Part shown: piece by piece, positions 1,536-5,310 of the stretch
How the letters are laid out: each line of letters starts with the position of its first letter
How positions within the stretch are numbered: position 1 is the stretch's first letter
NCBI GenBank assembly: GCA_011364925.1
Contig: RDOA01000046.1
Coordinates: forward strand, 1 to 30,025
Length of the DNA: 30,025 nt
Direction of reading: 5' to 3'
Source of the DNA: Promethearchaeota archaeon
GTDB taxonomy: Archaea > Asgardarchaeota > Lokiarchaeia > Sigyniarchaeales > SOKP01
Notes under the pieces: generated by a model
The model's input: the letters and a program-made list of their open reading frames with translations, nothing else
Told to the model about the DNA's origin: nothing
Databases searched by the model: none
Made by a program: the position numbers and the translations under genes

Positions 1536-2039
1536 TTATTTAGTTCGTTTTGCTAAAATTTTTTGTTCCAATAACCAAGATTCTCCACCATCAATGGAAC
1601 GTTCTGCTCTCCAGTTAAATGAGTGAGATGTTATTTTTGAATAAATCCATTTTTCAGGTTCATTTTTATTATTTTTTCCCTCTAAAACTATTTCTGAACC
1701 AATTTTTTTTGCAATAAAGATTTGTATGACATTAATTTTAGGTGCAATCCAAATACATTTACACGCATCAATTGATACATCATAAAATCGTATGGTGGTC
1801 CCAAAACCATTCTGAGGAAAATTTGGCGGAGGGTTTATAGCTTCTCCTTTCCAAACGTCTTGTATGGCTGTCCCAAAGAGAATCCATCCAAAAGACACTT
1901 CTCCTTTACCTTTAACTACGACATTCTCGGGAAGGTACCAAGTAGAATCAATAATCCAATTTCCAATAAATTGACTAAAGATTTTTAATTTTTCTTTTAA
2001 TTTAGGATCTGGTAAATCAGTTTCAAGTCCTTTAATCAT
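1536..2039 (-). CDS. Hypothetical beta-barrel protein (DUF1579-like)
   Basis: 167 aa ORF with SD-like AGGAG upstream. Motifs QFIGNW, FGWIL.G.AIQDVW, GTTIRFYD and SFNWRAERSIDGGESW are typical of this lipocalin-like family. Confidence 0.7.
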   Translation of the reverse strand: MIKGLETDLPDPKLKEKLKIFSQFIGNWIIDSTWYLPENVVVKGKGEVSFGWILFGTAIQDVWKGEAINPPPNFPQNGFGTTIRFYDVSIDACKCIWIAPKINVIQIFIAKKIGSEIVLEGKNNKNEPEKWIYSKITSHSFNWRAERSIDGGESWLLEQKILAKRTK

Positions 2040-2150: not shown

Positions 2151-2166
2151 AAGATAAAATTTATAT
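2151..2166 (+). promoter_or_regulatory. Putative archaeal BRE/TATA promoter for the leader-leuS transcript
   Basis: Purine-rich AAGATAAAA followed by TTTATAT (2160-2166), ending 28 nt before ATG 2194. This fits a near-leaderless start at about 2189-2194. Confidence 0.5.
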
Positions 2167-2193
2167 CATTGAAGGTATTTCATAATATTGATA

Positions 2194-2289
2194 ATGTTTT
2201 CGAAGATTAATACTTCAATTAGCTTGGATAGAAAATTTTTACTAAGAAAAGTATTACTTCGTGAATTATTACAGTTATTATCATTATAA
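2194..2289 (+). CDS. Putative Leu-rich leader peptide of leuS (MFSKINTSISLDRKFLLRKVLLRELLQLLSL*)
   Basis: Read manually: ATG 2194 to TAA 2287-2289. 10 of 31 codons are Leu, 9 of them in the last 16, arranged as tandem pairs. Ends 120 nt upstream of leuS on the same strand. Confidence 0.65.
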   Translation: MFSKINTSISLDRKFLLRKVLLRELLQLLSL

Positions 2290-2370
2290 GCGATACAAAT
2301 CCGCTTGACCTTTTTCTTTTAAACTTTTAACGGATTTGTTTGCTGTGAGCGTAAAATTTAATTGAAAAAG
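2288..2370 (+). promoter_or_regulatory. Putative attenuator RNA structure with U-rich terminator tract
   Basis: ACAAATCCG (2295-2303) pairs perfectly with CGGATTTGT (2331-2339). A competing stem is AAGCG (2288-2292)/CGCTT (2302-2306). TTTTTCTTTT lies at 2311-2320, and CTTTTTC (2310-2316) is complementary to GAAAAAG (2364-2370). Confidence 0.5.
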
Positions 2371-2409
2371 ACTACCGAGCGTTTTTGTTCTAACTAAAAA
2401 AGAATAAAG

Positions 2410-5310
2410 TTGTCAAAAATTATGTACGACCCACAACGAATTGAACGAAAGTGGCAAGATAAATGGGAACAGGCCAGAATATTTGAAGCTAATCCAATTT
2501 CTGACAGAGAAAAAGTATTCATTACTTCTCCTTATCCCTATGCATCTGGACCGGCACACATCGGTCATGGACGGAGTTTCGTAAATGGCGATGTTTTTGC
2601 TAGGTATTACCGAGCTAAAGGATACAATGTGTTATATCCTATGGCTTTCCACATTACAGGGACACCTGTATTAGCGATATCCTCATCCATTGAGAGAGGA
2701 GAAGAAAATATGATTGCGAGGATGATTGAATATGTTTCGCTACATACCCATGAGGAAAAAAAGGTGAAAGAGATTGTTGAGAGTTTTGTGGAACCTTGGA
2801 ATGTAGTAAATTACTTTTCGAGCACTTATAAAAGTGATTTTAAATCGATTGGAATGAGCTTAGACTGGAGGAGAGAGTTCACAACCGGAGATAAACTTTA
2901 TAATAAATTGATTGAGTGGCAATTCCACAAGTTATACGATAAAGGCTATTTGGAAAAAGGAGAATACCCAATTTTATATTGCCCTCGAGATGGAAACGCT
3001 GTAGGTGAAGATGACATCTCAAGAGGAGACGAATTAAATTTGGATATAAACGAGTACACATGCATAAAATTTCCGTTTGGAGATGGCTATTTAGTTCCTG
3101 CTACATTAAGACCAGAAACTATTTATGGTGCCACCAATCTGTGGATAAATCCTTCGGGGATATATGTAGATGCCAATGTGAACGAAGAGAAGTGGATTAT
3201 CTCTGAAGAGGCAATCCATCTACTAGTTAATCAAAATAAACTTGTAAGGGTTTTGAGGAAATTTAAAGGATCAGAATTAATCGGAAAGAAAGTTAAGGAA
3301 TTGTTTGGAGATCGCGAACTGTTAATCCTTCCAGGAGAATTCGTTGATACTTCAGTAGCTACTGGAGTTGTCTATTCAGTTCCCGCACACGCTCCTTATG
3401 ACTATATCGCTTTGGTTGATTTGCAAAAGGATAAGGATATGCAAGAGAAATTTAAATTAGATAAAGAAGAAATCGAGGGAATCAAGCCCATTCAAATAAT
3501 TGATTTACCTGGTTTCGAAGACTTTCCAGCTAAAATATATTGCGAGAGGTTTAAAGTCGAATCTCAAGAAGATTTTGAGAAACTAGATAATGCCACTGCT
3601 GAGAATTATAAGAATGAATTCTATAACGGAGTTTTAAACGATAAGTGTGCAGATTATGAATCTTTAAAAGTTAGCGATGCCGTCGTCAAAGTTGTTGAAG
3701 AATTAATCGAGAATGGTAAGGCAGACAAATTATATCTTCCCATTACGAAGGACCTCAAATGTAAATGTGGTGAACGCATAATTGTATCAATTTTAAAAGA
3801 TCAATGGTTTCTTAATTATACTGCAGGGAATTGGAAAGAAAAAGCTTTTGAGTGTTTAAATAGCATGGATATCGTGCCTAAAAAGTACCGAATGAACTTT
3901 GAGCACATTTTTAATTGGTTAGAAAAAAGGCCATGTGCCAGAAAGAGGGGATTAGGCACTAAGCTTCCGTTTGATAAAGATTGGATAATTGAATCCCTTA
4001 GTGACTCTACAATATATATGAGCTTCTATACCATAATTCACATATTGAAGGAGAATGGAATTCAGCCCGACCAACTCGTTATTGAATTTTTTGATTATGT
4101 CTATTTAGATATAGGAGATATTCAGGAAGTGTCTAAAAAGACAAAAATTAATGTGGGATTGTTAAAACAAATGCAAAAGGAATTTTTCTATTGGTATCCC
4201 GTTGATCATAGGCACACCGCTATCATGCATATCTCAAATCATTTAAGTTTCTACATTTTTCACCATGTAGCAATATTTCCAAGAAAGCATTGGCCAAAAA
4301 TCATTTCCCTCATAGAGCCAGTAATAATTGAAGGTCAAAAAATGGGTAAATCGATCGGAAATGTGATAGCATTAGCGGACATTCAGCAAAATTATTCAGC
4401 AGATTTATTTCGATTCTACATCTCTCACAGTGCTGACTTTGGTATTATGGTAGATTGGAGAGAAAAGCAAATTCAAACAGTTAAGAACCATATTATGAGA
4501 TTCTACAATTTTTTCGTGGAAAATGTCATTGCTATTAAGGAAGTTGAAGGAGACATTGCACACATAAACTCTAAATATTCTAAAATCGTCCTATCCAAAT
4601 GCATCAATAAATTCATTGAAGCAGAAAAAGGTCTAGAGGAATTAAATCTAAGAAAATACCTTCAGTTATCTTTTTACGAAGTTTTCAATTTGCTTCAAGA
4701 GTATAGTAAGCACACAGATAACGAACGCGATAAGTTAGAGGTATATAAAATTGTATTTCCAGAATGGATAAAGATTCTATCCATCACAATGCCGCACTTA
4801 TGCGAAGAGCTTTGGGAAAAACTGGGTAAGGATAACTTCATATCAACAGAGGTTTGGACTGATTTTAACATCGACTATACTAACATTAAACTTGAACGAG
4901 AGTTCGATTATGTTTCGGATGTAGTAGATGATATAATGAATATTTTAAAAATCGTGAAATCTAGCAGCCCAGAAAACATATATTTATATACAGCACCAAA
5001 ATGGAAGCAGGATGTGTACGAGATAATAAACTCTAAAAAAGGAGATTTCAAGGAAATAATGGAACAGTGTAAATTTAGCAACGATTTAATGAAAAATAAA
5101 AATTTAATCTCGTACATCAAAAGTCAAATCAAAGAAAGAGTTTGGGAAAAAGAATCAAATTCGTTGAAAGAAGAGCTTATACTAGAGGAATACAGAAGTT
5201 ATATCGAAAAAAGAATTATGGCTAAAATCCACATTAATTCAGAATATGATCCGAAAAACCGACTAGCTAAAGCGGTTCCGTTCAAACCAGCGATATATAT
5301 AGATCTTTGA
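2410..5310 (+). CDS. leuS: Leucine--tRNA ligase (archaeal/eukaryotic type)
   Basis: PYPYASGPAHIGH (HIGH), DWRREFTT, CP1 editing motifs ATLRPET and SVPAHAPYD, WIIESLSDSTIYM, KMGKS, C-terminal A.PFKPAIY. Start is TTG 2410 or ATG 2422. Confidence 0.97.
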   Translation: MSKIMYDPQRIERKWQDKWEQARIFEANPISDREKVFITSPYPYASGPAHIGHGRSFVNGDVFARYYRAKGYNVLYPMAFHITGTPVLAISSSIERGEENMIARMIEYVSLHTHEEKKVKEIVESFVEPWNVVNYFSSTYKSDFKSIGMSLDWRREFTTGDKLYNKLIEWQFHKLYDKGYLEKGEYPILYCPRDGNAVGEDDISRGDELNLDINEYTCIKFPFGDGYLVPATLRPETIYGATNLWINPSGIYVDANVNEEKWIISEEAIHLLVNQNKLVRVLRKFKGSELIGKKVKELFGDRELLILPGEFVDTSVATGVVYSVPAHAPYDYIALVDLQKDKDMQEKFKLDKEEIEGIKPIQIIDLPGFEDFPAKIYCERFKVESQEDFEKLDNATAENYKNEFYNGVLNDKCADYESLKVSDAVVKVVEELIENGKADKLYLPITKDLKCKCGERIIVSILKDQWFLNYTAGNWKEKAFECLNSMDIVPKKYRMNFEHIFNWLEKRPCARKRGLGTKLPFDKDWIIESLSDSTIYMSFYTIIHILKENGIQPDQLVIEFFDYVYLDIGDIQEVSKKTKINVGLLKQMQKEFFYWYPVDHRHTAIMHISNHLSFYIFHHVAIFPRKHWPKIISLIEPVIIEGQKMGKSIGNVIALADIQQNYSADLFRFYISHSADFGIMVDWREKQIQTVKNHIMRFYNFFVENVIAIKEVEGDIAHINSKYSKIVLSKCINKFIEAEKGLEELNLRKYLQLSFYEVFNLLQEYSKHTDNERDKLEVYKIVFPEWIKILSITMPHLCEELWEKLGKDNFISTEVWTDFNIDYTNIKLEREFDYVSDVVDDIMNILKIVKSSSPENIYLYTAPKWKQDVYEIINSKKGDFKEIMEQCKFSNDLMKNKNLISYIKSQIKERVWEKESNSLKEELILEEYRSYIEKRIMAKIHINSEYDPKNRLAKAVPFKPAIYIDL

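Follow-up and report, generated by a model that had tools for sequence, protein, structure and literature searches.

A candidate leucine-sensing leader peptide upstream of leuS in a Promethearchaeota archaeon

Described leader systems and the leuS leader

Leader-peptide sensing of charged tRNA is bacterial textbook knowledge, with leuL-leuABCD, pheM-pheST, trpL and hisL of Escherichia coli as classical attenuators and Leu_leader, Phe_leader, Trp_leader and His_leader as the corresponding Rfam families. Here we describe a leucine-rich upstream open reading frame (uORF) and the leader RNA around it, located before leuS, the gene for an archaeal-type leucyl-tRNA synthetase (LeuRS), in a Promethearchaeota archaeon (GenBank assembly GCA_011364925.1). 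The window is the whole stretch of DNA that was analyzed, 30,025 nucleotides of contig RDOA01000046.1, and all leader features given below lie on its plus strand. Based on sequence comparison and folding, ribosome-mediated leucine sensing very probably sets leuS expression. The locus shares with the leuL/pheM type a short uORF with conserved start, stop and frame, codons near its end that are cognate to the target gene, and competing helices by the stop codon that are mutually exclusive, one of them computationally occluded by a ribosome at the stop. It differs in having an archaeal TATA promoter, a probably leaderless uORF and a U-rich tract inside the switch, and it lacks a GC-rich terminator hairpin with a U-run: an intrinsic terminator scan returned 0 terminator-like sites, and the 8 nt after the rod-like helix S2 described below hold a mean of 2.5 U versus 3.1 expected. 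No Rfam leader, T-box or riboswitch family matched at its gathering score in seven loci, the best match being Phe_leader at chance level (18.9 bits versus 55, E 1.6). Given the failed terminator test and the missing Rfam match, we do not file the element as a member of the bacterial leader-peptide attenuators. The preliminary description of this DNA had proposed a leucine-sensing attenuator; the conserved uORF, the Leu enrichment and the exclusive folds support that proposal, but a bacterial hairpin-plus-U-run terminator does not form part of it.

In the E. coli tnaC-tnaA system, a leader peptide controls Rho-dependent termination, and free Trp is sensed via an arrest motif in the nascent peptide. 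The leuS leader would resemble tnaC if the archaeal factor aCPSF1/FttA were the effector, as ribosome position would then gate a termination factor; unlike tnaC, its many cognate codons and RNA switch point to charged-tRNA sensing. Seliverstov (2005; PMC1262725) predicted classical attenuators upstream of the leuS genes of Streptomyces avermitilis and S. coelicolor, where, judged by features, a Leu leader peptide would likewise control leucyl-tRNA synthetase. In the Streptomyces loci, a poly-U stretch follows the antiterminator and terminator hairpins, whereas the present locus has no such terminator and encodes an archaeal-type LeuRS. The actinobacterial LEU element before leuA (PMC1262725) is similar in that the Leu run itself base-pairs, alternative folds are present and a classical terminator is absent. 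In that element the run pairs with the leuA Shine-Dalgarno box, whereas here it pairs with the uORF start, and pairing with the start region of leuS found no support.

Known amino acid regulation in archaea includes the transcription factors TrpY and Tar, in an account that does not mention attenuation (PMC6737238). Both share with the leuS leader an amino-acid-responsive control of archaeal biosynthetic genes, but they are DNA-binding proteins acting at promoters, whereas the leader described here would be read by the ribosome. The literature that we searched, which covered few subscription papers, contained no report of leader-peptide sensing of charged tRNA in archaea. A predicted Rfam motif with Leu codons, 'leuA-Halobacteria', reportedly exists, and a 2005 paper in J. 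Bacteriol. is said to deal with the Methanothermobacter trp leader region. An earlier archaeal prediction of such leaders may exist.

Conservation and codon content of the uORF

The uORF runs from ATG 2194 to TAA 2289 and comprises 31 codons, 10 of them Leu, with nine Leu codons among the last 16 (control region, 2239-2286). Re-reading confirmed this frame and count as first described. The gene downstream matches archaeal-type LeuRS (TIGR00395) at 950 bits, against a cut-off of 648, so the enriched amino acid does correspond to the downstream enzyme. Most of the named relatives, at 70-78% identity, belong to the Promethearchaeota (Asgard archaea of the Lokiarchaeia type). The leuS frame is open from TTG 2410, but because orthologues begin at a Met-Tyr motif, the start is probably ATG 2422 (gene 2422-5310); the spacing of 120 nt between uORF and gene given previously counts to the TTG, and the orthologue start gives 132 nt. 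None of 5,000 dinucleotide shuffles of the intergenic region yielded an ATG open reading frame with nine Leu codons in the last 16 (the best reached 7), and the uORF is the sole case with such Leu density among 1,042 upstream ORFs of at least 17 amino acids in the genome. A 31-nt stretch at G000:C28:44977 that resembles the Leu codons is a chance match, being out of frame within a uvrB-like gene.

A Leu-rich uORF precedes leuS in all 24 same-genus loci with upstream DNA, the window included; each begins with ATG, has 27 to 32 codons and carries 6 to 9 Leu among its last 12 residues. Overall, 65 leuS loci carry such a uORF, and all six Leu codons are used. The tandem Leu pairs noted in the preliminary description are local to this uORF; in most relatives, the uORF finishes with several Leu codons in a row. 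A covariance model of the leader matched in 81/126 genomes of the family and in 0/24 genomes from other families of the class, while a broader model matched in 0/125 genomes from other families of the phylum; likewise, four leuS loci from other families (47-52% identity) have no such uORF. In all 71 model matches that were fetched, the uORF ends at the foot of the same stem. The leaders analyzed here number 95 (65 before leuS, 18 before genes for an FrhB-like protein with a helix-turn-helix domain [FrhB-HTH] and 12 before stand-alone small ORFs), contain 92 distinct uORFs and all come from one Promethearchaeota (Lokiarchaeia) family. An ATG start is kept in 94/95. The frame is open in 92/92 distinct uORFs, whereas stops interrupt the +1 frame in 92 and the +2 frame in 83. 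The Ile-rich and Tyr-rich readings that these bases offer in other frames were rejected, being broken by stops in 92/92 and 83/92 homologues. The TATA-like TTTATAT at 2160-2166, recognized earlier, follows a purine-rich BRE-like stretch, and the two together (2153-2167) form invariant columns in the leader alignment. In 59/95 leaders, this one included, the TATA box starts 34 nt ahead of the uORF ATG, and in 90/95 the distance is 28 to 36 nt. From archaeal promoter geometry, transcription is predicted to start at ~2188-2192, and the uORF is therefore probably leaderless or nearly so. A sigma-70 promoter scan gave no match.

Codon content follows the target gene. In the 65 leuS leaders, Leu accounts for 58% and Ile for 1% of the last 12 residues (Leu is 11% of residues 2 to 12); the corresponding figures are 41% Ile, 21% Leu and 17% Val for the FrhB-HTH leaders, and 40% Leu and 39% Val for the small-ORF leaders, whose downstream ORFs encode 45 to 65 amino acids. 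Ten genomes carry both of the first two types, and among the last 12 codons their leuS copies have 5 to 8 Leu and no Ile, whereas their FrhB-HTH copies have 0 to 4 Leu and 3 to 8 Ile. This contrast within single genomes serves as an internal control: base composition and scaffold alone do not account for the codon content. TTA makes up 329 of the 450 Leu control codons, against 45% genome-wide.

RNA folds and the proposed switch

The leader has three conserved helices. In P0 (2189-2283), the first uORF codons pair with the control codons (2208-2215 with 2249-2256, and 2189-2205 with 2257-2283), with duplex energies of -14.0 kcal/mol for self, -10.1 for cross-species and -6.7 for shuffled pairings. 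P0 holds the one credible pair in an all-against-all covariation analysis with a simulated tree null; it is weaker in this genome (z -0.98), and it could possibly act as a pause or timing hairpin. The other two helices are built from five segments 3' of the uORF. S1 pairs segment A (2290-2303), immediately 3' of the stop, with A' (2331-2343), around a loop formed by segment B (2309-2329); on a plain MAFFT alignment, 91.6% of cells are paired and 7/13 pairs show two-sided changes, which rises to 13/13 on a model-fitted, hence favorable, alignment. S2 is a long rod (2292-2329 with 2352-2390) in which B becomes the 5' arm and pairs with B' (2352-2370; 83% of cells paired), segment C (2376-2390) pairs with A and with 2302-2307, and A' is left as an unpaired loop. 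Duplex energies for self, cross-species and shuffled pairings are -10.8, -7.9 and -4.1 kcal/mol for B/B' and -6.5, -4.9 and -3.5 kcal/mol for A/C. Since S2 uses segment A, the two folds are mutually exclusive, and this overlap is found in 93/94 leaders. S2 is the more stable (-21.7 versus -13.4). Segment B is U-rich, with three runs of at least four U, and is a candidate archaeal termination signal; at least two U4 runs occur between stop+15 and stop+45 in 71/95 leaders, and in the six windows flanking it the count never exceeds 2/95.

An archaeal ribosome protects 15 to 16 nt from the P-site codon (PMC7261190), which places its leading edge near 2298 when it stands at the uORF stop. In folding simulations of this leader, S1 resulted when the ribosome edge lay no further than 2281 (0.89-0.98 for transcript ends up to 2385), and S2 when it lay at 2298 or further (1.0). 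Under scarce Leu-tRNA, the ribosome would stall on the Leu codons, 7/9 stall sites would leave A free, hairpin S1 could form and leuS would be ON. With plentiful Leu-tRNA, the ribosome would reach the stop and cover A to about 2298, S1 would be blocked, the U-rich B/A' region would be exposed and later taken into rod S2, and leuS expression would be lowered. The polarity of this scheme, with stalling and S1 leading to ON, is inferred from physiology. In the leuS leader of L016, the stop codon has moved into segment A by three codons; this natural variant bears on the ribosome-occlusion model. The element is shorter than 250 nt and could be tested in Methanococcus, Haloferax or Thermococcus.

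For the output of the switch, the least certain part of the scheme, we prefer premature termination at the U-rich tract, whether intrinsic or through aCPSF1/FttA, and give it about an even chance; mRNA decay or another output is unlikely. Binding of aCPSF1 requires a minimum of two U4 tracts, and a Lokiarchaeal orthologue makes use of them (PMC8716108). FttA cleaves nascent RNA ~22 nt from the 3' end, after threading its last 36 nt (PMC11616081). If S1 formed while A' emerges from the polymerase, it could prevent FttA threading, and S2 could later mask the tract. Most leaders have the U4 tracts within a short stretch as counted above, and the genome encodes aCPSF1 (TIGR03675, 885 bits, cut-off 580; G000:C21), a presence that is weak evidence because the factor is universal in archaea. 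The U-runs of B could also be kept for pairing with B'. The most specific version of the model is possible but on the doubtful side: ribosome position on a leaderless uORF would decide, via S1, whether the CPSF73-homologous aCPSF1/FttA cuts the nascent RNA, and the leader would serve as a module that can be used again before different genes, with codons adjusted (Leu, Ile/Val or Val/Leu) to each of them, within a wider Asgard system of Trp, His and Leu leaders.

Several observations weigh against leucine sensing through these folds. No S1 or S2 pair rises above the tree-based covariation threshold, and the poly-TTA region aligns badly, so the support consists of pair counts and swap tests among related sequences; these homologues are drawn from one family and hence are not independent. 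At equilibrium, S2 wins in ~95% of the post-stop segments with or without a ribosome block, which means that the decision must be kinetic and made during transcription. In another class of paralogues, located before related small ORFs, the scaffold is retained and the uORF has just a short Val/Ile/Leu end; together with the constraint that P0 places on the last three to four codons, this weakly biased class indicates that part of the codon bias is structural. The FrhB-HTH and small-ORF targets have no known link to branched-chain amino acids. Lastly, none of the 13 other aminoacyl-tRNA synthetase genes inspected in this genome has a cognate leader, nor does its leuA-like gene.

The same sensor could act on leuS translation, with S2 hiding and S1 exposing a ribosome loading site in segment C, or through reinitiation after the uORF. 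Segment C often contains a Shine-Dalgarno-like AGGTG word, and S2 has no U-run after it, as this output would have it. It nonetheless seems unlikely to us: the distance from uORF stop to leuS start varies from 107 to 161 nt among homologues, so that S2 ends at a variable distance from the AUG, and in swap tests neither the control codons nor A', B or B' showed a conserved signal for pairing with the leuS start region (for the control codons against the region downstream, -8.4 kcal/mol for self, -9.0 for cross and -9.6 for shuffled pairings).

The leader might otherwise be a generic structured 5' region that senses how fast translation runs overall, or that acts as a binding site for a protein or tRNA, its Leu codons being a by-product of AT richness and P0. 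The overlap of P0 with the control codons, the TTA excess and the paralogue class without strong codon bias would all fit such a leader. We consider it improbable, as codon content tracks the target within single genomes, Leu still makes up 38% of the control codons outside P0, the same logic recurs, with GC-containing codons, in the unrelated Trp and His leaders, and Rfam gave no T-box or riboswitch match.

One caveat of the preliminary description was that the peptide could be a small amphipathic protein. It appears very improbable that the uORF codes for such a protein or for another small hydrophobic one with a function of its own, such as a membrane peptide or type I toxin, co-transcribed with leuS by chance. 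Peptide length is kept at 26 to 32 amino acids, and in 42% of the peptides from leuS leaders a 17-residue window exceeds 1.6 on the Kyte-Doolittle scale, but the leader peptides show no conserved membrane-spanning helix under protein-level selection. Substitutions are spread nearly evenly over the codon positions (2057/2012/2337), the central part of the peptide lacks conservation, hydrophobicity varies between 0.66 and 2.54 (1.21 here), and Phe, Met, Trp, Tyr and Cys together make up ~1% of the last 12 residues, although Phe alone accounts for 9.5% in background uORFs. These features indicate that the codons matter and the peptide probably does not. The other caveat, a chance ORF, is refuted by the shuffles, by its uniqueness among upstream ORFs and by start, stop and frame being kept in 92 distinct homologues, even though the intergenic region is ~26% GC and TTA is the commonest Leu codon.

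Related leaders and LeuRS genes

When 200 TATA-linked uORFs of this genome were scanned without bias, the top three were the His uORF before hisIE, the Trp uORF before trpB2 and the Leu uORF before leuS. The idea that other amino acid genes would carry cognate leaders thus holds for trpB2 and the his operon, but not for the synthetase and leuA-like genes mentioned above. The Trp leader (L100:2608-2830; G000:C34, minus strand), upstream of trpB2 (2207-3607), has a 16-codon uORF with three Trp codons, enclosed by a stem. It is present in 30/30 trpB2 loci fetched, 29 of them with ATG or GTG. The His leader (L101:9545-9780; G000:C39, minus strand), upstream of hisIE (39624-40544) and before the his operon, has a 48-codon uORF that ends in six His codons and is followed by two hairpins, the second adjoining a Shine-Dalgarno box. 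It is found in 5/5 loci that share this hisIE fusion.

Paralogues of the leuS leader precede two kinds of genes. The FrhB-HTH protein (L212:873-2294, minus strand, and 17 other loci) is a stand-alone FrhB-like Fe-S protein fused to a TrmB-type helix-turn-helix domain, behind an Ile/Val/Leu leader, and is possibly a redox-linked regulator or enzyme of branched-chain amino acid metabolism. In the present genome, L285 and L286 (G000:C58:17349-18311, minus strand) form a tandem pair of paralogues before small ORFs of 63 and 59 amino acids, one uORF being Val-rich and the other weakly biased with a short Val/Ile/Leu end. Atlas look-ups returned no function for the FrhB-HTH and small proteins. The Ile/Val versions of the leader point to these two uncharacterized gene families as candidates for branched-chain amino acid metabolism.

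The leuS gene of the window is the only LeuRS gene found in this assembly. Among relatives, bacterial-type LeuRS is encoded in 117/130 family genomes and leader-type archaeal LeuRS in 69, and no Leu leader was seen at the bacterial-type loci. Because the leader-type LeuRS stands beside a bacterial-type one in most relatives, it is probably an inducible second, or back-up, enzyme. Bacterial-type LeuRS was not found in the present assembly, either through loss or through an assembly gap. The common LeuRS of the group (L159:668-3460, L177:619-3432) scores as bacterial-type over its N-terminal 790 to 840 amino acids and as archaeal-type over its C-terminal 320, which suggests a chimera. Four genomes (L222, L243, L246 and L280) have a divergent LeuRS, with 33-40% identity to that of the window, behind a Leu-rich copy of the leader; here the coding sequence has apparently been replaced under a retained control element. 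In the window, a 167-amino-acid ORF (1536-2039, minus strand) without an NCBIfam match lies between the leader and a divergent enoyl-CoA hydratase gene. It looks like an insertion, since the hydratase gene directly abuts the leuS promoter in the close relatives L002, L004, L005 and L007.

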